This document shows, piece by piece, positions 4,837 through 35,120 of a stretch of DNA of 64,000 nt. Every line of letters starts with the position of its first letter. The stretch's first letter is position 1. The translations under genes and the position numbers were made by a program. The notes beneath the pieces were generated by a model. The model ran no database searches, was not told the DNA's origin, and worked only from the letters and a program-made list of their open reading frames with translations. This DNA is from an uncultured Bacteroidales bacterium (lineage in GTDB: Bacteria; Bacteroidota; Bacteroidia; Bacteroidales; VadinHA17): NCBI GenBank assembly GCA_963831935.1, contig CAWHSH010000014.1, forward strand, positions 192,353 through 256,352. The letters run 5' to 3'.

Positions 4837-7425
4837 TTATTCTTTTGGGGTCAGGTCCTTTATTCTGATGTTTTTGAATTTGACTACCGATCCATGCCCC
4901 AGGAATCCGATATGCCCTGTCTTATTCTTCAATCCGGGATGGTCATTATGATCCATCGTACCGTTGTCCCTTGGCCCCGCAATATCCCCATCGACAATAA
5001 CTGTCCCGTTAAGGGTTATCTTAATATGTGTCCCTACAGCCTCCACTTCTTCATAGTTCCATTCGCCGATTGGTTTCAGGAACTCCCTTCTTGCCGGGAT
5101 TACCCCGTAAACTGAACCGTGATACTGGTATGGCTGAAGATTAGCATAAACCGGAGCAGTATTGTCGAGGATCTGCAATTCCATTCCTGTATAAGCTGCA
5201 TCACCCTCAAGAGGAGCCCTAATTCCAAGGCCATTATTAGCTGCGGGTGTAAGCTGAAATTCAAAGCGGAAAATAAAATCCGCATATTCCTTTTCGGTGT
5301 ATAGATTACCACCGCTTCCGTTTTCCGGTTTGATTACAATCATGCCATCTTCTGCAACGTACGATTGTTTATTTCCAACCCAGTTGTCGAGGTTCTTTCC
5401 GTTAAACAGAGCAACGAATCCTTCGGCTTTTTCTTCAGGTGTGAGATTATAATCCTTATCGCTTATCTCCCTGATATAAATATCCCTGAAGCCAAGATCG
5501 GTACCATGTGCCTGAAGCTCAATGGGACCTTTGGGAAAAATGGGGATCTTCCTGTCCCAGTAATTTTCCATAGTCACATTGTCGACAACAAGTTCGCCGT
5601 TTAGCCAGACTGACACTTTTTCTCCAATCATTACAATCCTGAAGGTATTCCAGTCTCCGACGGGATTATCAGCTACTTTCAGCGGTTTTGACGGATTGAT
5701 CTGGTTATTATACAGTCCTCCGGAACCTACCTGGGCTCCGGCATCAGTTCTTGAGGTGTCCCAGATCTGAACCTGTGGTGTACCCCTGAGATAGATTCCG
5801 CTGTCACCATCCTTTGATATCTTCCAGTCCACGAGCATTTCAAAATCACCATATTCGACAACAGAGCAAAGGTTTTCTCCTTTACCGTTAAACCAGATAC
5901 AACCGTCTTTTACACTCCAGTTTGCAGGTACCATAACGTTTGCCTCAGCCTGCATTCTTTCAAGATCAACTGCCCTCATTCTTGCTCTTGTCAGAGGTGT
6001 TCCGACAAGACCCTGCCAGCCTGTAAGGTCCTTTCCGTTGAACATCGATTTAAATCCTTCATCAGGCGGCATAACCGCAAGATATTTATTAATCAGTTCC
6101 CTGTTGTATTCGCTTTCAGGTCCTGTCAGCTTCGAAACAGCTTTGGTAAGGATATCACGAACCAGATTGCCATACATTCCTGCTTTTGAACTGACTGAGG
6201 GAAGGGCGATGTGCATGGCGGCATTTGCTGCTTCAGATGAAACAGAAGGGTCGTCTAGATAATTTGCCACAAAGAAAAGTATCTGATAAGTTTTAAGTTT
6301 GCCCAATTCAGTCAGGATTTCATTTTTACGGGCGGGGCTCAGAGCATAAGGCATTATCTTGCGGAAGAGCAACAATTTCTCTTCATCGGGTAATGATGCT
6401 GCCCTTATCTGTTTTGCATATCCTTCAAATGCAGGTGCTTCAAATGTTTTATTGCCTGAAGCACAGATTTCAAACAGAGCCGAAGATGCATTATAATCCT
6501 GCCATGAAGTAAGAGTCTTGAAACAGACATCCCTCATTTCTGGATTTCCGTTCTCAAATTCCTTTAAGACTGTTGCGAGAGCTTCTCTGCCTCCGGTTTT
6601 TGCCAGTACAGGTATTATCATCTCTTTTCCGGTAGTCCGGTCCTGTAATGATTTAAGAATTACCTCCGATCTCTTTTCCGGATCAGCGATTTTTCCGGCA
6701 GCTGATGCCAGTGCAGCCTGAACATCCGGAACATAATCCTTGCTCCGGGCATCAAATATCAAACCAATAAGATCTGTTTGATTACCAGGACCTGCCAGAT
6801 CGGCAAGAGCCTTAAAGGCAGCTGATCTGACATTCGCGTCACCTGATGATGTGTAAGAAAGAACCTGCGAAAAATATTCATTTCCTTTATTCCAGGCCAT
6901 CAGTTCTATTACGCTTTTTCTGGCTGCTTCAGATCCTTCTTTCAGAACCGGTTTGAGAAGAGCAATTTCTTTCTCTCCCGAAACAGACTTAAGTGCTTTT
7001 TTTGCAGCCTCCTGGTCCTCAGTGTCAGCGAATGTCTTGAGATATTCTATCAGCGACGGGACTGCCTTGCTTCCATCAATTTTTGTGAGTGCACCGGCAG
7101 CTTCACATCTTACTGATTTATCCGTACCTGATAGAGAAGACGTTACAAGGGGGAGCGCGGTCTTATCGCCCCTGTCTCCAAGCATTGCAATAATCTCAGA
7201 TTTCGCTTGCGGAGTTGCTTTAGGATAGTACTCAATCCATTTCCTGATGATTTCTTCTCCCGGAATTGTAAGTGCTGAACGGATGGCAGCATTCCTATAG
7301 GACTTGTCAGCGTTTTCTGCAGCTTTTTTAAGTTCTTTCATAGCATCAGCACCATGGAAGCTTACATAAATCAGCAAGGCTTTGGTCTTATTCTGAACTG
7401 TCAGCCTGTCTTTGCATTTTGACAT
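4837..7425 (-). CDS. HEAT-repeat protein with two C-terminal DUF1080 (3-keto-disaccharide-hydrolase-like) domains
   Basis: Intact 862-aa ORF. HEAT/armadillo-like N-terminal two-thirds, then two DUF1080-type modules (FNGKDLTGWQGLVG...IYLRGTPQVQIWD... and FNGKNLDNWVGNK...GLGIRAPLEGDAAYTGMELQILD...HGSVVKFKNIRIK). No signal peptide of its own; probably continuous with 7433..8245. Confidence 0.8.
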   Translation of the reverse strand: MSKCKDRLTVQNKTKALLIYVSFHGADAMKELKKAAENADKSYRNAAIRSALTIPGEEIIRKWIEYYPKATPQAKSEIIAMLGDRGDKTALPLVTSSLSGTDKSVRCEAAGALTKIDGSKAVPSLIEYLKTFADTEDQEAAKKALKSVSGEKEIALLKPVLKEGSEAARKSVIELMAWNKGNEYFSQVLSYTSSGDANVRSAAFKALADLAGPGNQTDLIGLIFDARSKDYVPDVQAALASAAGKIADPEKRSEVILKSLQDRTTGKEMIIPVLAKTGGREALATVLKEFENGNPEMRDVCFKTLTSWQDYNASSALFEICASGNKTFEAPAFEGYAKQIRAASLPDEEKLLLFRKIMPYALSPARKNEILTELGKLKTYQILFFVANYLDDPSVSSEAANAAMHIALPSVSSKAGMYGNLVRDILTKAVSKLTGPESEYNRELINKYLAVMPPDEGFKSMFNGKDLTGWQGLVGTPLTRARMRAVDLERMQAEANVMVPANWSVKDGCIWFNGKGENLCSVVEYGDFEMLVDWKISKDGDSGIYLRGTPQVQIWDTSRTDAGAQVGSGGLYNNQINPSKPLKVADNPVGDWNTFRIVMIGEKVSVWLNGELVVDNVTMENYWDRKIPIFPKGPIELQAHGTDLGFRDIYIREISDKDYNLTPEEKAEGFVALFNGKNLDNWVGNKQSYVAEDGMIVIKPENGSGGNLYTEKEYADFIFRFEFQLTPAANNGLGIRAPLEGDAAYTGMELQILDNTAPVYANLQPYQYHGSVYGVIPARREFLKPIGEWNYEEVEAVGTHIKITLNGTVIVDGDIAGPRDNGTMDHNDHPGLKNKTGHIGFLGHGSVVKFKNIRIKDLTPKE

Positions 7426-7432
7426 TACAAGC

Positions 7433-8245
7433 TTACAGGATCTTGTCCATCGTCTTCAGGTCTCCAATGGTTCCCAGATTTTTTGCATATTCAAGAAGGG
7501 AAGCCGTTGCACCAGTGTGCTCCCACCGGTAAAAAACATCCCTGGCTGCTTTGGAAAGCACAGGATAAGCCAGCGGACTTGCACTCCGGGCAAGGGCATT
7601 ATATGCGGATGCCTTTGTATTGATATCCATTACTCCGGCCCATTCAATATATTCATTCACGGCTAATTGCGACTTAAATCCTGCAAGGGCATTCATAACT
7701 GCGGCAGCACATGGAAGATCTTTGTTCTTAAGGGATTCTGCCAGTGCAATTTCCGCATTCTTACCCCCGATCGATTGCAAAGCGGCAAGTGCAGGACCGC
7801 ACATTTCCTTATCATTCAGTGAGGTTTTCAAAGCATCGACAGATGCATCGCTTCCAATAAGCTGCAGCTGTTTCATAAAGAAATCCTTAACACCGTTATT
7901 TCTTTGCCCGGTTGCATATTGAATACAAATTTTTTCCCACACAGGTCTTTCAGCTTCTTTGTCTTTCTTCGACAAGTACCGCGATAAACTTTCAACCGCA
8001 AATCTTGCCCGGGTGTCATCGCCGGTGCCTGCCGGTACTATCTGATCGCATATTTGCCTGATTCCGGTTTCACCCAGGGTAAACATATCGGTCATCAGCT
8101 TATCGAGATATTTTGTATCATTTGCAGGAAGCTGGGCAAGAAGGTCAGCAACTTTTGTCTCAATTGTTCTCTTATCCTGGCCAAAGGATATTGTGGAAAT
8201 CAGGAGAACTAAAAAGCCTAAATACAGTACTTTACGTATTTTCAT
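7433..8245 (-). CDS. Secreted HEAT-repeat protein; probably the N-terminal part of the 4837..7425 gene (one frame change), or a separate upstream gene
   Basis: 270-aa ORF with signal peptide (MKIRKVLYLGFLVLLISTISFGQ). Stops 7 nt before the next ORF, which is in another frame and lacks a signal peptide. Confidence 0.65.
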   Translation of the reverse strand: MKIRKVLYLGFLVLLISTISFGQDKRTIETKVADLLAQLPANDTKYLDKLMTDMFTLGETGIRQICDQIVPAGTGDDTRARFAVESLSRYLSKKDKEAERPVWEKICIQYATGQRNNGVKDFFMKQLQLIGSDASVDALKTSLNDKEMCGPALAALQSIGGKNAEIALAESLKNKDLPCAAAVMNALAGFKSQLAVNEYIEWAGVMDINTKASAYNALARSASPLAYPVLSKAARDVFYRWEHTGATASLLEYAKNLGTIGDLKTMDKIL

Positions 8246-18749: not shown

Positions 18750-19552
18750 TCATCCTCCAATCTTAACTTTTATCCCTGTTTCAGAAAAGAATTCTTTTAA
18801 CTCCTTCATCCTCTCCTGAGATGGCTGAAGCGTATCATCCATCCGGTACGGAAGATTGAACCTCTTATATTTCGATGCACCAATCCTGTGGAAAGGAAGC
18901 AGGTTTATTTTTTTCAGGTTCTGGCATTTTAACTCAGCCAAGCAGGTTCCTCAATTCGGAAAGATTAACAGCATCATCATTTTTACCCGGGATCACCGGA
19001 ATTCTGACCATTACATCCTTTCCGCTTTTCAGTACCATTTTCAGATTATCAAGAATTCCAATATTGGAAACTCCGGTATATTCAATATGTTTCTGAATCG
19101 TCGAGGTGTTTGATATCAAACAGGAAGAGATCTGTCAAAGGCATAATTGCTTTAAAGTTTCCGGCAGAAGAATACCCTGAGGTATCGACAGCCGTATGAA
19201 ATCCTTGCACTTCGGCAGGCTTCCAATGCTTCTTAAGAAACTCATTCTGCATCAGTGGTTCACCGCCCGAAAAAGTCACACCTCCACCTGATTGTTCCAG
19301 GAAGATTCTGTCTTTTTCAAGAATTTCAATGATATTTTCCACTGAATAATATTTACCTACCTCTTCAGTTTCGGAAAACTCTTTCCCTCCTACCTTTCTT
19401 GTCTGATTCACCTTTTCCCTTGCTGGTGAAATGCCTTCCGGATTATGGCACCACCAGCACGAAAGAGGACAACCTTTCATAAAGAATGTAACCCTGATCC
19501 CGGGGCCGTCATGTATTGAATAGCGTTTAACGCTGAAGATCAATCCTTGCAT
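18750..19552 (-). CDS. Glycyl-radical-enzyme activating protein (radical SAM); 2 frame changes
   Basis: MQGLIFSVKRYSIHDGPGIRVTFFMKGCPLSCWWCHNPEG (CX3CX2C), ...GGGVTFSGGEPL... Fragments 19082..19606 (ATG at 19552), 18934..19119 and 18750..18941. Directly upstream of the GRE. Confidence 0.85.
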
Positions 19553-20225
19553 TATGAAAAAATGTGAAAAAAAAATAAATAAAAAAACCGGGAACAAGAA
19601 CACCATTCTGTTTGTTTAATAACAGAAATGATGGCAGGAATACTAGCTGTAGAACATCAGACAGCTATAAAGTCTCCTTCCGAGACGCTGCATCATGAAA
19701 CGATATCTTAGGTTTGAAATCATAACTGTTTAACTGGCCGAAAGTTATAAAAAAAAATTTCAAATTGTTAAAAAATTAAGGAAAATCGTCTGAAAAATTA
19801 ACAAAAGATTAACATAAACAGCCTGCAACAAAATTATAATCCAGGCGTCTATATATTGAGAGTAAAACAAAATAATATATTATTCAGAAAGTTCTTTTTT
19901 TAATTGGTTTAGTTTTTCTCCGTAAAAGGAATCAACTATATAATACTTAAAGATTTCTTCAATGGCCGTTCGGCCAAATTCTACGATCAGGTTTAGGTTA
20001 ATGAAGGAAAGATAACTCCCAACTATCTTTCCTTTTTTTTTTGCACGTTTCTTAGCCTTTTTTCTTGTTTACTATGATGGCTTAGAATTCTAAATTCCGT
20101 TCAAAAGCAATTGTACCGGGCGGCAGAGAATTTCAAGAAAAAATATATTTGACTCGTGTAAATAATCCGGAATTTTCAATCTTTGTACCTTGCCTGTTCA
20201 AGAAAGTTAATATCAAACCTGAGTT

Positions 20226-22333
20226 ATGAAAAAAGCAGCGTTATTCATTATTATAGTCACTGTAGCATTCGCGTCATGTAAACAAAAAAAAGAAAATGGG
20301 AATCCCTTTTTCAGTGATTTTGACACTCCGTTTGGGGTTCCTCCCGTTCGAGCTTATTAAGGCATCTCATTTTAAGCCGGCATTTCTGAAGGGTTTTGAA
20401 GAACAAAAGGCCGCAGTAAATAAAATAACAAGAAACCGGCAGGAGCCGGATTTCAAAAATACAATAAAGGCCCTGGAATACAGCGGCGAGCTCCTGACAA
20501 AAGTCAGCAGGGTTTTTGGCTCTCTCAACTCAGCCAATACAAATGATTCCTTGCAGGCTATCAACATGGAGATTGCTCCTCTATCGTCCAAACACAGGGA
20601 TGATATCAATCTGAATGATACACTGTTCCGGAGAATAAAATCAGTTTATGAGAACAGGGATAATTTCAAATTGACTCAGGAGGAAAAGAAGGTCCTTGAT
20701 GATACTTACAAAAGCTTTGTACGGAACGGAGCAGAGTTATCGCCTGAAGACAAGGAAAAACTTCGCAGTATAAATGAGGAACTTTCGCTTCTCTCTGTAA
20801 AATTCGGTCAGAACCTTCTGGCAGAAACAAATGCGTTCAAGCTGATTATTGATAATAAGGAAGATCTTGCAGGATTGCCGGAGGGAGTCATTACCCAGGC
20901 TGCAACGACGGCTGAAAAGATGAACCTTAAGGGTAAATGGGTATTCACAATCCAGTATCCAATCATGGAACCCTTCCTGAAATATTCCGAAAAACGTGAT
21001 TTGCGCCAGAAGCTCTTCACTGCTTACTTCATGAAAGGTGATAATGACAATGAAAAGGATAACAAAGCAATAATAGCCAGAATAGCAAGGCTAAGGGTGG
21101 AACGGTCGAAACTTCTCGGTTATAAAAGCTATGCCGATTTTGCCCTTGAAAGGAATATGGCCAAAACACCCGAACGGGTAATGGAATTTCTTGGACAGGT
21201 ATGGAATGCAGCAATTCCCTGTAGCTAAAGCCGAGGCAGCCGCTCAGCAGGAACTTATCGATAAAGAGGGGAAGAAATTCAGGCTTGAACCATGGGACTG
21301 GTGGTATTACACTGAAAAAATAAAGAAGGAGAAGTATGCGCTTGATGATGAATTGACCAGACCGTATTTCAAAACGGAAAATGTTATTGAAGGTATGTTT
21401 TATGTAGCTAACCGCCTTTATAACCTTTCTTTTACCAAAAGAACCGATATACCGAAATATCATCCCGACGTTGTTACATATGAGGTAACCCGGGATAACA
21501 AGCATGTCGGAGTGCTTATGATTGACAATTATCCGCGTGCTTCAAAACGTGCCGGGGCGTGGTGCGGCGCCTACCGGGGACAGAGCCGTGACATTAAAGG
21601 TAAAATGATCCACCCTGTTGTTACCATGGTCACTAACTCGACTCCGCCAACAGCCGGCAAACCTTCTCTTCTGACACCGGACGAAGCAACCACCCTGTTC
21701 CACGAATTCGGCCATGCCCTTCATCAGCTCCTTTCAAACACAACATACCCTGGCGTATCAGGCACTTCGGTTCCACGCGATTTTGTGGAGCTGCCTTCAC
21801 AGATAATGGAACACTGGGTGCTTGAGCCCGAAGTTCTGAAGGTATACGCAAAACACTATCAGACAGGAGCGGTGATTCCCTCAGAAATAATTGAAAAACT
21901 TGATAAGGCAGGCAAGTTCAATACAGGTTTTACAACGGTGGAATTTCTGGCCGCTGCCCTGCTGGATATGGAATACCATATTCTTACCGAACCTGTGGAT
22001 CTCAATATCAGGGATTTCGAGAATCAGGTTCTGGACAAATACGGGTTAATACCGGAGATCAAGCCAAGATACAGATCAACTTATTTCAACCATATATGGA
22101 GTGGCGGTTATGCCTCGGGATATTACAGTTATTACTGGAGTGAGATGCTTGATGCAGACGCTTTCCAGGCATTCAGGGAAACAGGAGATATTTTCAACCG
22201 CGAAGTTGCTTCCAGATTTGAAAAAGAAATCCTTTCAAAAGGTGGAACAGCTGATCCGCTTGAAATGTATATCGCTTTCAGAGGGAAGGAACCAAGTATT
22301 GATGCCCTGCTTGAAAACAGAGGTTTGAAATGA
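20226..22333 (+). CDS. dcp: M3-family metallopeptidase (peptidyl-dipeptidase Dcp-like), lipoprotein signal; 2 frame changes
   Basis: MKKAALFIIIVTVAFASC start at 20226. Fragments 20296..21228 and 21191..22333. Zinc motif TLFHEFGHALH. Colinear with Dcp/oligopeptidase A. Confidence 0.85.
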
Positions 22334-24419: not shown

Positions 24420-25091
24420 TCACTCCCTGGTAAGGTCTGAAAGCCTTTTCTTATCCAGTATTCTGACGTATCGGCCTTTTGTATAGATCAGTCCTTCATT
24501 TTCAAGCTCGCCTATGGCCCTTCCGATAGAGGGACGGGTAACTCCGAAAAAATCTGCAAGGTCATTCTGTGTCATATTCAGAGTGGTCTCTGTTGTGTTT
24601 TCTCCGGTTGACTGAAGAATAAACTGAGCCAGCTTTTCTTTGATGGTTTTGAAATTGAGAAACTTAATTTTCCCGGAAAGGAATTGTGACCGGTTTGAAA
24701 TCATGTCCAGAAAATTGACAAGGATCTTTTCATTGCTCTTCAGCAGTTTGAGAAAATCGTGTTTTTCGATTACAAGGAGCTCAGTATCTGAAACTGCGAC
24801 AACATTTACCGGAAAAGTGTTTAAGTTACCGAACATAAATGCCGGTGCAAGCGCTCCCGGTGCCGGAATATCCTCAATTTTTATCACCCGCCCGGCATAA
24901 TCGACCATTTCACCTTTGACAGTCCCTTTTATAACTACCATCATGGAAGTGACGTGTTCACCGCCCTGGGCTATCAGCGATCCGGTTTTGTATCTTTTGA
25001 TCCTGTGAGGTATCAGTGACATAGCTTCCCGGATCTCTTCCAATAAAATATTCCTGAAAAGCGGAGCCTTAATAAGAATTGAATAATCCAT
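24420..25091 (-). CDS. Crp/Fnr-family transcriptional regulator (possibly HcpR-type)
   Basis: Intact 223-aa ORF. cNMP-binding-like beta-barrel followed by a C-terminal HTH (TQNDLADFFGVTRPSIGRAIGELENEGLI). Divergent from a GTAAC-N4-GTTAC palindrome. Confidence 0.85.
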   Translation of the reverse strand: MDYSILIKAPLFRNILLEEIREAMSLIPHRIKRYKTGSLIAQGGEHVTSMMVVIKGTVKGEMVDYAGRVIKIEDIPAPGALAPAFMFGNLNTFPVNVVAVSDTELLVIEKHDFLKLLKSNEKILVNFLDMISNRSQFLSGKIKFLNFKTIKEKLAQFILQSTGENTTETTLNMTQNDLADFFGVTRPSIGRAIGELENEGLIYTKGRYVRILDKKRLSDLTRE

Positions 25092-25292
25092 AGTTTTTCT
25101 AAAATAGGTACCTTAAAAATCCATAAAAAATGAAAAGTATCAAAATTATTCTGATAATCATCCTTATACCAAAGAGTTACTTTGCCGGAGCACAGGAGCA
25201 AATCCCTGATCACTAATCCATCGCGAACTTTGGGGTTTATTCTTAATGGGTTAGATTGGTCAGGAGTAAATAAATTTTAAAAACTTCTTCAT

Positions 25293-25310
25293 TTGTAACA
25301 TATGTTACAA
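25293..25310. promoter_or_regulatory. Perfect 18-bp palindrome TTGTAACATATGTTACAA: candidate Crp/Fnr (HcpR-type) operator
   Basis: Read directly. 55 bp upstream of the ATG at 25366 and 201 bp from the regulator start. An extra half-site-like TTTGTAAG follows. Confidence 0.55.
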
Positions 25311-25365
25311 TTTGTAAGTTTCTCTTTTATCATTTTTGCATTATAAAATAACAAATGCAATACAA

Positions 25366-26238
25366 ATGAAAAGAGACATTCTGAAAATAGACGAGGATTT
25401 ATGCAATGGCTGCGGGCAATGTGTCCCGAATTGTCATGAGGGAGCATTGCAGGTCATTGATGGAAAGGTCAGACTGGTAAGTGAACTTATGTGCGACGGT
25501 TTAGGCGCCTGCATAGGGCACTGCCCGGAAGGGGCGATCACAATCGAAAAAAGGGAAGCTGAACCCTATAATGAATCAAAGGTGATGGAACAGATGAAGC
25601 ACAAAGGGAAAAATACCATCATTGCCCACCTCAGGCACCTGAAGGAACATGGTGAGACAGGATTCCTTCAGGATGGCGTCGGTTATCTCAGGGAACACAA
25701 GGATGAACTTAATTTTGACCTCAGGGAAGTAATGTCAGAAGTCCATAACAGCAGTCAACACCAAAAACAAGGAGGGGAAGGATGCCCCGGATCGCGGGCA
25801 ATGATCATTGAGAAGCCCAGGTACTCTGACAATCAAATGCCTGCGGCTGACCAGCCTTCTGAACTAAGGCAATGGCCTGTGCAGATGCATTTACTTAATC
25901 CAAATGCACCATATTTCAGGGGAGCCGATCTGCTGCTGGCTGCCGATTGCGTAGCTTACTCAATGGGAAATTTCCACAGCATGCACCTCAGGGGGAAATC
26001 GCTGGCAATAGCCTGTCCGAAGCTCGACCACGGTACAGATATTTACGTGGAAAAACTTACATCCATGATTGATATTGCCAAAGTCAATACCATAACTGTA
26101 ATGATGATGGAAGTGCCATGTTGCGGGGGATTGCTTCAAATGGTCAGGGCAGCAATGGCTAAAGCGGCACGAAAAGTGCCTGTGAAACAGATGATAACAG
26201 GCATTTCAGGAGAGGTATTGGCGGAGGAATGGGTGTGA
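25366..26238 (+). CDS. Ferredoxin-domain Fe-S protein with a Cys-containing C-terminal domain of unknown function
   Basis: MKRDILKIDEDLCNGCGQCVPNCHEGAL... (CX2CX2CX3C) and CDGLGACIGHCP. C-terminal AADCVAY, IACPKLD and EVPCCGG. The listed ORF begins at a TTG (25336); the ATG at 25366 is preferred. Confidence 0.7.
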   Translation: MKRDILKIDEDLCNGCGQCVPNCHEGALQVIDGKVRLVSELMCDGLGACIGHCPEGAITIEKREAEPYNESKVMEQMKHKGKNTIIAHLRHLKEHGETGFLQDGVGYLREHKDELNFDLREVMSEVHNSSQHQKQGGEGCPGSRAMIIEKPRYSDNQMPAADQPSELRQWPVQMHLLNPNAPYFRGADLLLAADCVAYSMGNFHSMHLRGKSLAIACPKLDHGTDIYVEKLTSMIDIAKVNTITVMMMEVPCCGGLLQMVRAAMAKAARKVPVKQMITGISGEVLAEEWV

Positions 26239-26346
26239 CATGCTATATATCACAAAATCCTCCGTTAAATTGCTTCCTAAAAAAAAATTATATATTTTCG
26301 CAGACCGATAGTAGAAAAAGGTTTTAGCTAAATAAATATCCAGTTT

Positions 26347-29300
26347 ATGTTACAGGACAAAATTCAGGAAGCATCAGCTAATCAGAAGCTTTACCTGGGA
26401 ATTGATGTTGGATCTGTTTCTCTCAATACGGTGCTTTTGGATGAAAGCTATAATGTTCTAGAGAACTATTATGATTATGTTCATGGGAAACCGTTTAATG
26501 TTCTGGAAGAGAGACTATCAACAATTTTAGGAATTCATCCTGCAGAAAGCATTTGCGGAATATCCGTGACAGGCACAGGCGGGAAGCTAGCTACAGAGTT
26601 AATTGGTGGAATATTTGTAAATGAAATAATTGCACAGGCAACCTCTTCGGGAAGACTGTTTCCTGAAGCCCGGACTGTTATCGAGATCGGCGGAGAAGAT
26701 TCAAAACTTATAATTCTTGAAAAAGATCCCTCAAACGGTCATTCACGTCTTGTCGATTTTGAAATGAACAGTATATGTGCCGCAGGAACGGGATCATTTC
26801 TCGATCAGCAGGCCAGAAGAATCGGAGTTCCCATTGTAAATGAATTCGGAGAGATGGCTTTGAAATCGGTCGATCCTCCCCGGATAGCAGGAAGGTGCAG
26901 TGTCTTCGCCAAAAGCGATATGATTCACCACCAGCAGATCGCCACTCCGCTTCATGATATAGTAGCAGGATTATGTTTTGCTCTTGCCCGTAATTTCCGG
27001 AGCAACGTGGCAAGAAGCAAGGAGATAAATAAGCCCGTTATCTTCTCAGGTGGCGTTGCTGCCAATACAGGAATGATAAGGGCTTTCAGGGAGGTCCTCG
27101 ACCTGAAGGGTGATGAGCTTATAATTCCCGAATATCATGCCTCGATGGGCGCCATAGGCGCGGTTATGTATGCCCGTTCCAATAACCTGGAGATGAACCA
27201 TTTTAAAGGGATGGGAAAACTGAAGGATTATCTTTCGGATGATACAATCCGAGTTCAACAGCCTTCCACCCCTGAAGGAATCTGAAGCAGTTTACGATAA
27301 AACCGTGCATTTCAGAAAGAACGGAATAAAACGTCTTCCGGTTTATCTCGGAATTGATGTCGGATCATTAAGCACCAATGTTGTGCTGATCGATGCCGAC
27401 CATAAAGTTATTGCCCGGCGTTACCTGCCAACTGCAGGCAAGCCTCTGGAAGCCATTCAGAAAGGGATGACTGAGATATTCGATGAGGTAGGGCAGGACG
27501 TGGAAGTTATTGGAGCAGGGACAACCGGATCGGGAAGGTATCTTACCGGCGACTTCATAGGTGCTGATACAATTCAGAACGAGATAACCGCCCAGGCTAC
27601 TGCCGCAATTGATTATGACCCTACTGTCGACACAATTTTTGAGATCGGTGGTCAGGATTCAAAATACATAAGCATTGAAAATGGTGTGGTTGTCGACTTT
27701 GAGATGAATAAGGTTTGCGCCGCAGGGACGGGCTCATTTCTTGAAGAGCAGGCCGAAAAGCTTAATATAAATATTGTGGATGAGTTCGGATGCATGGCAT
27801 TAAATTCGGAATGTCCAGTAAAACTGGGCGACAGATGTACTGTTTTTATGGAATCTGACCTTAATTCGTATCATGCAGAAAGGTGCCAGAAATGAGAATC
27901 TTGTCGGTGGTCTGGCCTATTCAATCGTATACAACTATCTCCAGAAGGTTGTTGCCGACAGAAGGGTCGGCAACAAGATCTTCTTCCAGGGAGGAGTAAC
28001 CAATAATAAAGCTGTTGTAGCAGCATTTGAACAGGTTACAGGCAAGAAAATAATCATCCCGCCGCATTTCGATGTCACAGGTGCCATAGGCGCTGCAATT
28101 CTTGCACAGAGATCAATGAAATAAGGACAAAAAACCACTTTCAAGGGCTTCGGGATCAGAAATGCTACATATACCATGAGCAGGTTTGTCTGCCAGGCCT
28201 GTACAAACCATTGTGAGATCAGAAAAGTCAAAATAGCCGGAGAAAAGAAATCGCTTGTTCTATGGCGGAAGATGTGAAAAGTATGAAACTGACGGCCGCA
28301 AGAAAGCTGTCAGGTAATATTCCCAATCTTTTCAATAAAAGGCTGGAGATGCTGATGGAAGGATTACCGGGAGAAAGATAAGGATCAGGAAAAAACCACC
28401 GCACTATTGGAATTCCAAGGGCTCTGATGGTTTTCTACCAGCAGTTCCCGTTCTGGAGAACTTTCTTTGAGGAGCTTGGATTTACAGTGGTCATTTCAAA
28501 AGAATCGGATAAAGAACTTGTAACCAGATCAATTGAGACTATTACCACAGAAACATGCCTTCCGGTTGAACTGATGCATGGACATGTTATTGATCTTATC
28601 GAAAAAGGAGTTGATTATATCTTTCTGCCGTTCATTGTTAATGCCAAATTCAAGGAAGGGAACAAGACATTCAACTGCAACTGCCCATGGGTCCAGACTT
28701 ATCCGTTTATGGTAAAAGCAGCCCTGAAAGGGAAAATTGATGAATCAAAACTTCTGATCCCGACACTTCATTTCAGATTCTTTGAACGTGCTCTGGTAAA
28801 GGAGATGACAGCATATTTCAATGATAAATTCGGATCTGGGAAAAGAAGAAATCAGAAAAGCCATTTATAAAGCTGATGATGTTCAGGTTGCATTTGAAAA
28901 ACGTCTTGTGGATTACGGGAAAGAGGTTCTTAAAGAATATTCCCGAAAATTGCCGTCCGGTTGTACTGCTTGGAAGACCTTATAACAGCACTGATCCCCA
29001 TCTGAATCTGGGTCTTGTTGAAAAGCTTATCACTCAGAATGTTATGCCTATTCCTATTGATATGCTTGATCTTTCACCTTACAATATCTTTGAGAACTAC
29101 AGGAATATGTACTGGCCTAACGGGCAGAAGATCATTGCTGCTGCCCAGCATGTCGCAAAAACTGACGGATTGTATGCTGTTTATCTGAGCAATTTCCGCT
29201 GCGGACCTGATTCATTCATATGGCATTATGTTACTGAGGAGCTGAAAGGCAAACCGTTCCTTCATCTTGAGGTTGATGAACATTCTGCCGATGCCGGTAT

Positions 29301-30625
29301 GGTTACCCGTATTGAAGCATTCCTCGACAGCCTGAAAGGTTCGGAACAGAATGAGAAGAAAGAGGTTAAGATCTTCAGGCCAAGGCCAAGTCCCGCATCA
29401 CCTCCAAAAGACAGGGTATTATATTTTCCATATATGAATGACGGTGCATATATGCTTGCTGCTGCTGCCAGAAGCATCGGAGTTCCCTCTGAAGTGCTTC
29501 CAAAACAGACTGAAGAAGATCTGGCAATCGGAAGAAAATATACTTCTTCAAAAGAGTGCTTTCCTATGATCTGTACCACCGGAAGCTTTATAAAAAAATT
29601 ACAGGAACCCGGAGCAGATCCTTCAAAAATGAGCTTCTTCATGCCCGATCATAACGGTCCATGCCGGTTTGGACAGTATAACCATTTTCACAGGATACTT
29701 TTGACAGGCTGGGCTTTGAGAAAGCTGAACTTATAACACCTTCAAATGATACATCTTATGAAGATGTCGCCGGGGAACATGGACAGAAATTCAGGATCAA
29801 TGCATGGAAGGGATTTATTGTTGCTGATTATATCAGGAAGATATACAGGGAAACCAGACCTTATGAGATCAATAAGGGTGATTCAGACCGGCTATATGAA
29901 GATGCAATACATCAGACTGGAAAAATGTATTGAAAAAGGCACCAAGAGGACTTCATAAAGTTCTTGCGGAGATAGCCTCAGATTTTATGGCAATCAAGGT
30001 CGACAAAAGCGTAAGGAAACCGGTTGTGGCAATTATCGGTGAAATATTTATGCGCGACAATGCCGGGTTGTAACGGAAACATTGCCAACCGCCTTGAAGA
30101 TCTTGGTGTTGAGGTAGTTATAGGTCCGTTTTCAGAATGGATCTATTATTCGACCTACAGGTTTCACCCGCGACAGCAGGTGGAAAAATGATAAGAAAGG
30201 AATTATAAAATCCAAGATTCAGGGATTCGGTCAGGATGTAATTGCAAATTCACTATTGAAAGGGATCAAGAAATTCACCGATCATGAGAAAGATGTATCA
30301 CTTCACGAAATGCTGAAGCTATGCAACACTTATGTGAATGAGTTTTATGACGGTGATCCGCCAATAGCAATGGGTACTTCGGTTGCTCATGACAAAAAGA
30401 GGCGTTTCAGGTCTTGCTGCCATACTGCCGTTTACCTGCATGCCGGGAACTCTGATAGCCTCAGTAAGCGATTCCTTCCGGAAGGATCATAACAATATCC
30501 CGTTCATTAATATTGCCTATGACGGTCAGGATACTGTTTCCCTTGATACAAGACTACAGGCTTTTGTATTCCAGGTAAAGGAATTTGCAGCTGTCATCCG
30601 AACCGGTGACAGCATGACAGAATGA
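26347..30625 (+). CDS. Giant acyl-CoA-dehydratase-activase-related fusion (2x BcrAD/BadFG/HgdC-type ATPase plus Cys-rich DUF2229/HgdB-like region); at least 8 frame changes
   Basis: ATPase 1 at 26347..27285 (LGIDVGSVSLNTVLLD...CAAGTGSFLDQQA). ATPase 2 at 27239..28124 (LGIDVGSLSTNVVLID...CAAGTGSFLEEQA...FFQGGVTNNKAVV). Downstream fragments (28427.., 28876.., 29746.., 30256.., 30383..30625) carry FVCQACTNHCE, FNCNCPW, SNFRCGPDSF, SKECFPMICTTG, HNGPCRFGQY and PFTCMPGT. Confidence 0.75.
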
Positions 30626-30671
30626 TCACCGTATTATAATACGGTTTTAAATACGGTTTTTAATACGGTGA
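30626..30671. terminator. Hairpin with a triplicated right arm between convergent genes (TCACCGTATTA ... AATACGGTTTT x2 ... TAATACGGTGA)
   Basis: tcaccgtattataatacggttttaaatacggtttttaatacggtga. On the + strand the first two arm copies are each followed by a T-run, giving an intrinsic-terminator shape for the activase gene. Confidence 0.55.
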
Positions 30672-30672
30672 T

Positions 30673-31805
30673 TTATTCAGCCACTTTAAATCCCAGCTCT
30701 TTGAGCTTTTTCTCAATATCCGGAGATCCCTCTTTCAGGGTGACTGTATAGGAAGTGAATTCCCGTCTTACCGGGTAATTTTCCCTTAATTTTTCGAAAT
30801 GTGACGGATCGAATCTCAGCTTGATGTCATCCTCAACAATATTATAGGTATGGAAGACAGCCTTTCTGATAATTTCTTCATCACTCTTTCCATAGCAGTC
30901 AATTGTCAGCGCGGGTTCGGCAGGCGCTGGAATTTCTTCAGGAAACCAATCGGCCAGCGGTAATATCAAAGAACCGGCACAGGTCCGTTACAATCATTGA
31001 AGTTCCATTCGCTTTGCCATCAACAGAATAGCCTGCAATGTGAGGTGTTGCCAGAAATGCTGTGTGCATAAGGGGAATGTCGATTTCCGGTTCTTTCTCC
31101 CAGACATCTATCACTGCACCAGCGAGCTTTTCTTCAGCGAGAGCATTTTTAAGAGCTTCTGTTTCAACTACCTCACCCCTTGATGAATTTATCAGCCAGG
31201 TTCCTTTCTTAATCTTTCCGAAAGTTGTTGCCATCGAAAAAATGATTCGTTTTATCCCTTCCATCCATATTAAGTGGCACATGAAGGGTAATTATATCAG
31301 ATTCCTTCAAGACGTTTTCAAGGCTGACAAAGATTTTAGTTCTTTCACTTCTTGCTCTGGGCGGGTCATTCAGTATCACTTTCATACCCAGGATCCCTGC
31401 CAGTTTCTGAACTTTTGAACCCACATTTCCCACTCCGACTATCCCAATTGTCTTATCTCTCAGGGAAAATCCCGATTCAGATGCAATCCTTAAAAGTGCA
31501 GCAGCAATATACTGCTGAACAGAGGATGAATTGCAGCCCGGAGCGTTGATCCATTTAATATTATTCTTTTCACAGTAGTCCGTGTCAATATGATCGAAGC
31601 CGATTGTGGCAGTGCCGATATACTTTACCGGGGTCCCTTCAAGAAGTTCAGAGTTGCACCGGGTCCTTGTCCTGACAAGCAGAGCATCAGCTTCCATTAC
31701 GGCTTTCCTGTTTATCTGATTACCAGTCAGATAAGTGATTTTTGCATAGGGTTCAAGAACACCTTTTAAAAAAGGAATTTTATCGTCAGCAATTATCCTT
31801 ATCAT
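30673..31805 (-). CDS. pdxB: 4-phosphoerythronate dehydrogenase; 2 frame changes
   Basis: MIRIIADDKIPFLKGVLEPYA... (ATG 31805), GIVGVGNVGSKV NAD motif, ...LINSSRGEVV..., ...ATPHIAGYS..., plus a PdxB-specific C-terminal dimerisation domain in 30673..30969. Confidence 0.85.
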
Positions 31806-31949
31806 AGAGTTCAGATTAACTTCTGAAAGGTAATAAATTTTGATTTTTTTCACTTCCTGAAGAACAAGAAAGTTTTTAATTTTTTCTGTTTACTAAACTT
31901 TTCGTAATATTTAGACAACTAACTTGGTTTTGTTATTAATTCATTTGCT

Positions 31950-32850
31950 ATGAAATCACATTTTACTCTTGCATTATTAATTTTAATTCCATTCTTCGGA
32001 ATTAAGGCACAAAAACCTGTCATTGTTTCAGACGACAGTCTTAAAATTGGCAACAGTTTATTACCCGGTTTGTCAGTGACAATACCTGAAGCTCAACTTT
32101 GATAAAACTATGAAAGTGTGGATAAGGGATCTTCAGTCAGGTACAAGATCAAAAGTGCTTACTGAGAACAATGAGATGACTATTTTTGGCGCCAAGATAA
32201 AAGCTATCAGCCCCAATCCGATAAATGTTTACAGCAAGCTGGTCAGTCTCGATTCAATGCTCCAGCTTTATCGTATGCATTTGAAAAGAAAAAGGACCTG
32301 TATGTTGATAAGATCCTCAGGTGAGGCCGATTATACTAAAGCCCAGGAATACCTGAAGGAGTTTGCCAAGGATCAGTATATTGAAGTTGCCAAAGATCAG
32401 GCTGATGCTGAAGAAAAGAAGCTTCGCGATCTTCAGAAGGAACTGTCGTCGCTTGAAAATGAAAAGTCGCGCATGCAGAAATCAATTCAGTCAAAAAATG
32501 CATCTATCCTGAGTGAAAAAGATAATATTACTATTCAGAATAATGAACTGAATACTGTTTCGGCTGCCCTTGTCGAACAGAATAATCTTCTTGCCGCCAT
32601 GGAGGCCGGACCAGCTCAAAAGGAAAAAGCCGATCAGATCAAGGATCTTGAAAAGAGGAAGAAAAAAGCTCTTAATTCAATAGAATCATCCGAGAATAAG
32701 ATCAACAGATTCAACTCCGACATAGACAAGGATAACAACGAAATACCAAGAAACGAAAGGATGCAGGAAAAGGTCAGGGAACAGATTATACAGCAGGAAG
32801 CTGTTTATCAGATTTATGCTGATAAACTGAAAAGGATCAAATCATATTAA
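31950..32850 (+). CDS. Secreted hypothetical protein with a long C-terminal coiled coil; 1-2 frame changes
   Basis: Signal peptide MKSHFTLALLILIPFFGIKAQ (ATG 31950). Continues in ORF 32110..32850 with heptad-rich, K/E/Q-rich sequence. No family recognised. Confidence 0.5.
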
Positions 32851-32951: not shown

Positions 32952-35120
32952 CTATTCGATAATTTTCATTTCGTTCAACAGGTATCCCGCTCCCGCAAAT
33001 TTATCAATGATAAACAGTGCATACCTGATGTCGAGGCTTATATTCCGGCTCTGATCCGGATTATATGACATATCGCTGGCAACGCCTTCCCATGCCCTGT
33101 CGAAATTTATGCCGATAAGAAAGCCTTCGGCATTTATTACGGGACTTCCTGAATTACCTCCGGTTGTGTGGTTGTTTGCAATGAAGCACACCGGCAATTC
33201 TCCGTTTTGCGCATAACGTCCGTAATCGCGCTTTAAAAATAATTGTTTCAGCTTTTCGGGAACATCATAATCATAAATCTCCGGATTGTCCTTTTCAATG
33301 ATGCCTTCAAGAGTTGAGACCGGTTCAAAATAAACAGCATCCCTGGGGAAAATAACCTTTCACTGTACCGTAGGCAACCCTCAGTGTCGAATTGGCATCG
33401 GGATAAAATACTTTTGAGGTATCGAATTCCATTTGCACCTGCATGTAAGCCCTGTTAAGTTTTTGAATTTCAGAATTTAGTCTGACCAGTTCCGGTAGTA
33501 CATTTTCTGACAGGAAGTTACCGGCATCAACGGAAAGAACATACAGGGGATCTTTCTTCAGCCTGTTTACTGACCGGATTCCAAAATTTGTTACGAATGC
33601 AGTAAATTTCGACTGATCAGCAAAGATTGTGCGCTTATATATTTTGCCGACAATTCCTGCAAAGTTACTCTTACATGATCTTTTCAGCTTCAGATATTCA
33701 GGAGCCAGCCATTTTTCTTCAAGTGTTTCACCATAGCGTTTGCATAAGCGTACAAATAATTTCATGTCGGTTTGCCGGTCATAATCCTTGAAGAATTCCT
33801 TTGAGTACTCAATAAGATCGGACTTCAATTTTATTGCTGCTTCATCGTCGGTGTTCTTCTCAAAGAGGTCGGAAAGCCGTTTGAGGCTCCTGGCAAGCGT
33901 CATTGCCTCGATGCCGTTCATAACTTCGTTTGTAAAGCTGTTAACGAGCATGTATTCCCTTAGGTTCCGAGTAAGCTTCCTTGTACGAAGGAAGAATATT
34001 ACTGAATTCTGGCTGTTCTTACATTATCTAGTCTTCAATCCATTTTGTCAGCCTTGCTTCAAATTCCTGCTTTTTGCCTATAGTGTTCATTCTTTCAAGT
34101 CCCTGAATCTCCCCTATCCATCTTCTTCCATGAATTTGAAATGCCGGCCTTTTTCGCAGAATACTGTATTCTGATCAATGGATCGGAGTTCATTGCTTCA
34201 TCGATTATATCTATCTTTTTTGTCCTTATATCTATCATTTTCGGATCAATATAATTTTTTATCATATCGATATAGTACGACGGTACATACTCTGATGTTG
34301 AACCCGGATAGCCAAATACCATTGTGAAGTCGCCCTCTTTAATACCCCTGAGCGAGACAGGAAAGTAATAAGCAGGCTTGTACGGAACATTATCAATGGA
34401 ATATTCCGCCGGCTGGTTATTCTGGTCTGCATAAATCCTGAACAGGGAAAAATCACCTGTATGACGGGGCCAGATCCAGTTGTCGGTATCACCGCCAAAT
34501 TTGCCGATAGCTGAGGGCGGAGCTCCAACAAGACGGACATCGCGGAATGTTTCATTTACAAAAAGGAAATACTGATTGCCCATATAAAATGGCCGTACAA
34601 TTGCCCTGTAACCGGTTCCTTCTACGGCTTTTTGCTGGATCTCTGTAATTCTTGATGAAATAAGCTTATCACGCTCATCCGGCTCCATATTATCCGTTAC
34701 ACCTTCCAGGACCTTCCCTGTAACATCCTCCATCCATTTAAGAAATGTAACGGTAACACCGGGATTTGGAAGCTCTTCCTGCTTTGACATTGCCCAGAAA
34801 CCGTTAGTGAGATAATCATGCTCCAGGCTCGAGTGTTCCTGTATCTGGCTGTAACCGCAATGATGATTTGTTATAAGCAGCCCCTGGCCGGAGATCAGCT
34901 CTGCCGTGCAGCCGCCATTGAAGTTCACGACAGCATCTTTCATACAAGCCCGGTTAACGCTGTAAATATCTTCAGCTGAAAGCTTAAATCCTTTTTCGCG
35001 CATCAGTTTGATGTTGTATTTCCCGATCAGAAGAGGGATCCAGATGCCCTCATCAGGAATTGATGAAAAGCAGGAATAAAGAGTCAGAATCAGAGCCGAA
35101 GTAAGTAATGTTCTTTTCAT
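32952..35120 (-). CDS. S46-family dipeptidyl-peptidase (DPP7/DPP11-like); at least 3 frame changes
   Basis: Signal peptide then DEGIWIPLL; catalytic His context LLITNHHCGY; catalytic Ser context TTGGNSGSPVINAEG. Fragments 34095..35120, 33325..33951 and 32952..33197. Confidence 0.9.

Follow-up and report, generated by a model that had tools for sequence, protein, structure and literature searches.

What does a very large activase-like protein do beside a Crp/Fnr-type regulator and an iron-sulfur (Fe-S) protein, and do the three genes belong to one module? The question is raised by a stretch of 64,000 nucleotides from an uncultured Bacteroidales bacterium (contig CAWHSH010000014.1, positions 192,353 to 256,352; hereafter the window), in which a regulator gene, a palindrome and a gene for an Fe-S protein are followed by a gene that joins two ATPase domains to a cysteine-rich region (hereafter the fusion). 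The original prediction, made from the letters of the DNA alone, took the three genes for one regulated module that might be a reductase of nitrosative or redox stress. The reading favoured here, with a probability of roughly 0.6, is that two known systems stand side by side, namely an HcpR-FrdX nitrosative-stress cassette without hcp and an adjoining gene for a PlsA/Ger-type ether-lipid synthase, the frame breaks of the latter being technical. Each part is a further case of something already described, and the locus appears mostly ordinary, with the exception of the chance that cassette and lipid enzyme are co-regulated. The coordinates of all features are collected in Table 1.

The regulator gene is, as had been proposed, a Crp/Fnr gene, and its intact open reading frame (ORF) encodes both a cNMP-binding-like sensor domain (PF00027) and a Crp-type helix-turn-helix (HTH) domain (PF13545). 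Its closest relatives in the PDB are Thermotoga 1o5l and the HcpR of P. gingivalis (9day, 5v30/6np6), with E of about 1e-29, and the other Crp-family matches lie more than 10 orders of magnitude behind, at 1e-16 or weaker. In the recognition helix, VTRPSIGR, the residues P187, S188 and R191 align with Pro187, Ser188 and Arg191 of B. thetaiotaomicron HcpR, which were reported to contact DNA (PMC13370916). The helix fits the pattern R-P-S-x-x-R, in which a proline replaces Glu181 of CRP, the signature of the HcpR2 group; the Glu181-to-Pro change was associated with the HcpR2 motif GTAACnnnnGTTAC by Rodionov et al. 2005 (PMC1274295). Structural relatives and helix together bear out the supposition that the regulator is HcpR-like. 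The gene product is an HcpR-type protein and a predicted sensor of nitric oxide (NO), in which the only heme-related feature seen is M62, aligned at the conserved 'EM' position in the heme-ligand region of P. gingivalis HcpR. The likeness to the HcpR2 group of B. thetaiotaomicron and P. gingivalis covers domain layout, nearest structures, the three helix residues, the operator, the divergent orientation to the target promoter and the aligned methionine of the heme region. Unlike in that group, the target promoter serves frdX alone in the window, within whose 64 kb no hcp was found.

The operator is a perfect 18-bp palindrome, TTGTAACATATGTTACAA. It is the sole match in 64 kb even at 3 mismatches, for a chance expectation of 0.04, and its core GTAACnnnnGTTAC has one exact occurrence in the window. 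The operator is unchanging across the aligned promoters and conserved in relatives, where regulator and box were observed together in all 37 regulator-carrying loci and never apart where the context is complete. The earlier assignment of the palindrome as the regulator's own site is upheld by this co-occurrence and by the HcpR2 consensus, from which it is predicted. In an alignment of 17 promoters the conserved elements are the operator and, 22 nt downstream, (T/C)AnnTTTG, and nothing else; the spacing is 22 nt in 16 of the 17. The second element, which reads CATTTTTG in the window and TAnnTTTG in frdX-hcp loci, we take to be the Bacteroidetes -7 promoter box. Because of the 22-nt spacing, the centre of the operator would lie at about -41 from the transcription start, the classical position of an activator. 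The operator stands about 70 bp upstream of the ATG of the Fe-S gene, and the layout of operator and -7 box is identical in loci with frdX before the fusion and in loci with frdX before hcp. From this placement, the Fe-S gene is predicted to be a direct target of HcpR.

The regulator gene had also been described as divergent from the palindrome, which is only loosely true, since 200 bp lie between its start codon and the palindrome and hold the remnant of an M28 peptidase gene. In the related locus L001, the sequence aligned to the remnant is the start of a 500-aa M28 gene (6474-7976), after which the alignment skips to sequence past the stop codon of that gene. An M28 gene is found between regulator and operator in about half of the related loci. 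Its deletion is real and no assembly artefact, because L164, a short-read contig 94.5% identical to the window, has it too.

The Fe-S gene is intact, and its product is the ferredoxin-domain protein that the original prediction had seen, with the quoted cysteine motifs in place. The ATG at 25366 is its conserved start, and the mechanically called ORF begins at the TTG at 25336. At the N-terminus there is a 2x[4Fe-4S] ferredoxin domain (Fer4-family matches at residues 6-59), which contains the quoted motifs, and at the C-terminus a PF27217 'AF_0155' domain; 5 cysteines are invariant in the C-terminal half. The AlphaFold2 (AF2) model of the protein was poor, with a predicted local distance difference test (pLDDT) of 53, and nothing meaningful came from its Foldseek matches. 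By family context the protein is an Hcp-associated ferredoxin-like partner of the FrdX type, because its homologues elsewhere directly precede hcp behind the HcpR box. In the frdX-hcp operon of Desulfovibrio, Clostridium and C. difficile (CDR20291_2075-hcp), the ferredoxin-like gene also comes first behind the HcpR box, and homologues of the window protein precede hcp in many Bacteroidales contigs. The window differs from these operons in that the cassette is without hcp and in that the Fe-S protein bears the C-terminal PF27217 domain with its conserved cysteines. In C. difficile, frdX and hcp share one common HcpR site and are induced about 200-fold by NO, and knock-down of frdX leads to NO sensitivity (PMC12915319).

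Variation in the Fe-S protein and its surroundings was also observed. In hcp loci labelled as Rikenellaceae (L049 at 5131-6072, L050 and L054), the linker between the ferredoxin and AF_0155 domains is variable in length and strongly His-rich, for instance HHHHHQQGHQHRHQHH, and may bind metal. Where neither hcp nor the fusion follows the Fe-S gene, two families recur downstream, a soluble protein of about 108 aa and a membrane protein of about 200 aa (L134, L149, L156; L110, L120, L123), which may also belong to the HcpR regulon.

How far the three genes belong together was seen in two surveys. One genome per species was searched with an alignment of the fusion as query, which gave 80 loci, and metagenomes were searched with an alignment of the Fe-S protein, which gave another 80; the 62 genome loci with at least 2.5 kb upstream of the fusion were scored. 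Regulator, box and Fe-S gene stand upstream of the fusion in 27 of the 62, and in 6 more hcp lies between the Fe-S gene and the fusion (L030, L037, L049, L050, L054 and L061; Prismane, E=5e-177). In L033, a seventh case, which lies on a truncated contig outside the scored set, hcp likewise immediately precedes the fusion. Regulator and box were found without the Fe-S gene in three loci, the Fe-S gene without regulator or box in three, partial cases in two and none of the three elements in 21. Five of the fusion genes that lack the cassette lie in the same synteny, from the sensor kinase to pdxB/S46 (L018, L021, L022, L040, L041), and 16 further genomes have the fusion in unrelated contexts. 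Around distant orthologues the neighbours are heterogeneous (LepA, pyridine-nucleotide disulfide oxidoreductase, EamA, DUF1697, a xanthine-dehydrogenase-like protein) and gave no functional hint.

On the side of the Fe-S protein, metagenome homologues with at least 68% identity have the fusion next in 14 of 15 loci. Below 68%, hcp is directly next in 18 of 44, assorted genes in 24 and the fusion in 2, these two being frameshifted close relatives. Outside the clade, Fe-S homologues never have the fusion next. The gene neighbourhood that the original prediction proposed to survey is conserved, but within one Bacteroidales clade, and is absent from 21 other contexts of the fusion and 42 other contexts of the Fe-S gene. 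One insertion event, which placed an hcpR/frdX-hcp cassette beside a resident gene, would account for this distribution. Read against the loci with hcp, the window's cassette is one from which hcp was lost. The link to nitrosative stress that had been suggested is in turn supplied by the orthologous loci, through the hcp gene between Fe-S gene and fusion in six scored genomes.

The fusion had been presented as a 4.3-kb reading frame. This did not hold: 13 frame changes and an in-frame TAA (28122-28124) set it apart from the intact 1416-aa orthologue of L001. Its domains were read from a stitched, frame-repaired translation. The profile search that had been proposed for the repaired protein found two BcrAD_BadFG domains (E=6e-77), DUF2229 (E=5e-65) and then a weak HGD-D match, and precomputed PF06050 matches exist on most orthologues. 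The two HgdC/BcrAD-type ATPase domains and the spaced cysteine motifs are as originally described, all quoted motifs being present. Orthologues are intact at 1416-1417 aa and mutually 82-94% identical. An exhaustive search with a fragment from the window collected a family of 2382 clusters, whose complete members mostly measure 1380-1460 aa. Cysteine conservation was counted over 28 sequences at 53-86% identity. Besides the ligands of the ATPase domains and the four cysteines of a mini-domain (modelled as beta-strands at low confidence), three cysteines (733/775/947) and then four (1066/1101/1236/1358) are invariant in the reductase module.

Beyond the ATPase domains, a profile search with the C-terminal 830 aa found no sequence relative in the PDB, and NCBIfam gave generic activase and benzoyl-CoA reductase (BCR) subunit matches below their cut-offs, without a specific model. 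An AF2 model of this C-terminal half, built with the Cys mini-domain on a shallower alignment, had as its top 12 Foldseek matches the double-cubane-cluster protein (DCCP), BzdNO, MbdON and HadBC, at probability 1.00 and template modelling (TM) scores of 0.38-0.49. As modelled, the C-terminal half is an acceptor module of the superfamily of BCR, 2-hydroxyacyl-CoA dehydratase (HAD) and DCCP.

The large fused family was said to have no assigned substrate, a statement that is outdated, for the plasmalogen synthase PlsA/PlsR (2021) and the glycerol ester reductase Ger (2022) share its architecture. The BBD(H) architecture is that of Ger from T. maritima and D. alkenivorans and of PlsA/PlsR (PMC13159169), the single-gene plsA of E. 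faecalis measures 4,248 bp, or 1415 aa (PMC12838417), and homologues are reported from about 15% of Bacteroidota (PMC10191378). The fusion is probably a PlsA/Ger-type ether-lipid synthase acting on the sn-1 acyl ester of phospholipids, because of its succession of two BcrAD_BadFG domains, DUF2229 and HGD-D, its length of about 1416 aa, its fold class and the published distribution. With PlsA/PlsR (CPE1194/1195 of C. perfringens; a single gene in E. faecalis, L. cremoris and B. longum) it shares the two activase ATPase domains, the DUF2229/HGD-D domains, the single polypeptide of about 1415 aa of the fused form and the BCR/HAD superfamily. It differs in that it comes from an uncultured Bacteroidales bacterium, the comparison being one of architecture, and in that an HcpR cassette as neighbour is undescribed for PlsA. 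With Ger (Tmari_0479 of T. maritima; D. alkenivorans) it shares the BBD core, but Ger has extra small D/H matches (BBDHDDH) where the fusion has one weak HGD-D after DUF2229.

Other enzymes that use the archerase principle were considered. A CoA-ester dehydratase or benzoyl-CoA reductase system is ruled out by gene context, in agreement with the original prediction: no CoA-transferase, acyl-CoA or aromatic-degradation gene lies nearby in the window or in more than 80 related contexts. The absence of hcp and of acyl-CoA metabolism genes next to the fusion, reported earlier, was confirmed, that of hcp for the whole window. DCCP/DCCP-R and the class I benzoyl-CoA reductases BzdNO/MbdON are alike in fold and in archerase principle, but the fusion lacks the six/seven-Cys [8Fe-9S] motif, carries ATPase and acceptor in one chain and has no CoA-ester gene context. 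DCCP membership is ruled out, as cysteine spacings of 42/172 and 35/135/122 misfit the six/seven-Cys double-cubane motif, CX19CX18-19CX29CX166-170CX32-34CX32C (PMC7317905). The pattern is similar to that of the 3-Cys single cubanes in BzdO and HAD (PMC11971306).

Could the fusion nevertheless act on something other than lipids? It might be a DCCP-like ATP-driven reductase of a small molecule of the nitrogen-oxide type, or a repair enzyme, serving in nitrosative stress together with the Fe-S protein. DCCP is among its top fold matches, few members of the large family were tested, the fusion sits in an HcpR/hcp context, and DCCP is said, in work of Jeoung and Dobbek in 2018, to reduce azide and hydrazine as well. 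DCCP was shown to reduce acetylene in vitro (PMC7317905). The missing double-cubane motif, replaced by halves with 3 and 4 invariant cysteines at other spacings, makes this improbable, as does the agreement of whole architecture and length with the experimentally assigned PlsA/Ger. Moreover, HcpR, hcp and FrdX are missing from the vicinity of most fusion-family members, Bacteroidales orthologues at 58-68% identity among them. Literature searches on HcpR with activase and on CoA-enzyme activase with nitrosative stress returned nothing relevant. A truly decaying pseudogene would explain 13 frame changes and a stop within 4.3 kb in a locus that is also without the M28 gene and hcp, and the density of breaks, 3.0/kb in the fusion compared with about 1.3/kb in its neighbours, or about twice as high, leaves some true decay conceivable. 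Most of what was observed points the other way, and decay of this gene is the least probable of the explanations considered. The frame breaks look like assembly noise, because one type of change, single-base (+1) insertion outside homopolymers, accounts for almost all of them, those at 27246, 27871 and 28253 included, because the same type breaks five unrelated neighbouring genes (radical-SAM activase, M3 peptidase, pdxB, hypothetical and S46 peptidase; 14 frame changes in 10.7 kb), because orthologues are intact, all 120 homologues listed for the fusion being full length, and because L164, the closest relative, with the same gene order, is clean at the only break that it covers, lacking the insertion at 27246 and staying open through the first 435 codons. 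In the same way, the fragments keep about 90% amino-acid identity to L001 at 85% nucleotide identity. Sensor kinase, regulator and Fe-S gene are free of frame breaks. Elsewhere in the window, several long genes run on as single ORFs without interruption, and the density of assembly errors looks uneven.

The ether-lipid synthase of the favoured reading could still belong to the NO response. All of it might be one NO-controlled operon, in which HcpR induces frdX and the PlsA-like gene, FrdX is the dedicated donor of the archerase and nitrosative stress leads to ether-lipid remodelling of the membrane. Two observations weigh both for such an operon and against two systems that merely adjoin: the gap between Fe-S gene and fusion is 108 nt, with no terminator-like site predicted in it, so that co-transcription may be the rule, and in L007 and L010, which lack both regulator and box, an intact Fe-S gene still lies beside the fusion, a hint at a functional tie. 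The adjacency in 27 scored genomes and in the 6 with hcp between, and the strong conservation of an intact Fe-S gene despite the loss of hcp, point in the same direction. Moreover, archerases require a ferredoxin or flavodoxin donor (PMC7317905), and plasmalogens are discussed as stress-protective (PMC10191378). Against this, the association is confined to one clade, where a single insertion suffices, and did not recur independently in the other contexts of either gene. About 50-100 nt before its start, the fusion is preceded by a conserved element of its own, ATATCAC ... TATTTTCGCA, with or without the cassette (also in L001, L005, L028-L030, L051, L054 and L061). This element could be the fusion's own promoter or the binding site of another regulator. 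The cassette was lost and the fusion kept in the five syntenic genomes. In L014, L023 and L027, where regulator and perfect box are kept and the Fe-S gene is gone, about 200 bp separate the box from the fusion downstream of it, and the -7 box has a degenerate form, CATCATCG. Finally, validated PlsA enzymes function in E. coli without FrdX, and a literature search found no link of plsA or plasmalogens to HcpR. HcpR co-induction of the lipid enzyme is a possibility, and the operon as a whole is unlikely, though less so than the preceding alternatives. The claim that all three genes form one module is not supported, resting as it does on an adjacency that arose once in one clade, in view of the fusion genes elsewhere without the cassette and of the fusion's own element. 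An equally tentative proposal is that, in this clade, frdX and plsA are transcribed together from the promoter of the NO-sensing HcpR (with hcp between them in Rikenellaceae-labelled genomes), and that FrdX is the physiological low-potential electron donor common to Hcp and the lipid reductase.

Some further points weigh against a stress cassette beside an ether-lipid synthase. The FrdX label comes from the ferredoxin domain and the pairing with hcp, not from sequence comparison to the FrdX of Desulfovibrio or C. difficile. Likewise, the fusion is assigned to PlsA/Ger by its architecture, length and fold class together with published statements, rather than by direct alignment or a tree. Its HGD-D match scores 24.8 bits against a Pfam gathering score of 28.4, and the AF2 model of its C-terminal half is moderate only, at pLDDT 65.

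Under the favoured reading of two adjoining systems, the locus would work as follows. An HcpR activator that senses NO through heme would bind the GTAACnnnnGTTAC box, whose centre would lie some 41 bp before the transcription start of a Bacteroidetes promoter, and when bound would turn on the FrdX-type Fe-S electron-transfer protein. The equivalent cassette in other lineages would be hcpR / frdX-hcp, hcp being gone from it in this lineage. The two fused HgdC-like ATPase domains would carry a bridging [4Fe-4S] cluster, and ATP hydrolysis would drive electrons of very low potential into the fused HAD/BCR-like module with its single-cubane clusters. By reduction and dehydration, this module would turn the acyl ester at sn-1 of a membrane glycerophospholipid into a vinyl ether (plasmalogen) or an alkyl ether; the chemistry proposed for such enzymes consists of two ATP-energised one-electron reductions of this ester, after which it is protonated and dehydrated (PMC8788747). 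The gene of the lipid enzyme would be a resident one and have an upstream element of its own; in addition, transcripts from the HcpR promoter may read through into it and FrdX may supply the enzyme with electrons.

Right after the stop codon of the fusion, in the convergent gap to pdxB, three tandem copies of a 12-nt sequence (TTATAATACGGT-like) that form nested inverted repeats were also observed.

Table 1. Features of the locus and neighbouring genes with frame breaks (positions in the window).
Feature	Position	Strand	Remarks
hcpR-type Crp/Fnr regulator gene, 223 aa, intact	24420..25091	minus	cNMP_binding + HTH_Crp_2
M28 peptidase gene remnant, first ~68 nt	25130..25197	+	matches M28 gene start in L001
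Predicted HcpR2 operator, perfect 18-bp palindrome TTGTAACATATGTTACAA	25293..25310	.	equals published consensus GTAACnnnnGTTAC
Presumed Bacteroidetes-type -7 promoter box CATTTTTG	25331..25338	+	22-nt spacing from operator
FrdX-type Fe-S protein gene, 290 aa, intact	25366..26238	+	Fer4 domains + PF27217
Conserved element upstream of fusion (ATATCAC ... TATTTTCGCA)	26244..26302	+	in loci with Fe-S gene, with hcp, with neither
Probable PlsA/Ger-type ether-lipid synthase gene (fusion), orthologues 1416 aa	26347..30625	+	13 frame changes + TAA at 28122
ATPase (archerase) domain 1	26395..27186	+	matches HadI 4eht, MbdP 9gai_C; Cys144/Cys184 invariant cluster ligands
ATPase (archerase) domain 2	27347..28139	+	matches MbdQ 9gai_D, HgdC 1hux, DCCP-R 7yyl_E; Cys457/Cys497 invariant
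Four-Cys mini-domain CxxCxxxC...C (orthologue residues 615-642)	28191..28275	+	4 Cys invariant, 28 sequences
Reductase/dehydratase module, DUF2229 + HGD-D-like, two halves	28400..30622	+	Pfam matches
Inverted and triple 12-nt direct repeat, convergent fusion/pdxB gap	30625..30672	.	possible bidirectional terminator
Radical-SAM activase gene	18750-19555		frame breaks
M3 peptidase gene	20226-22333		frame breaks
pdxB	30673-31808		frame breaks
Hypothetical gene	31950-32850		frame breaks
S46 peptidase gene	32952-35120		frame breaks

The main yield of the analysis is a correction of annotation, as the large 'acyl-CoA dehydratase activase' of Bacteroidales metagenome-assembled genomes is most plausibly a PlsA/Ger-type ether-lipid synthase, and the pair of genes upstream of it an HcpR-FrdX nitrosative-stress cassette minus hcp. 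If cassette and lipid enzyme were co-regulated after all, the making of plasmalogens by bacteria, a process still described as of unknown role in anaerobes, would have a physiological trigger. This would be the first known regulatory signal of the anaerobic synthesis, and FrdX its first known dedicated donor. FrdX, a protein described as unclear in function yet required for NO tolerance in C. difficile, would then have a part in electron transfer.

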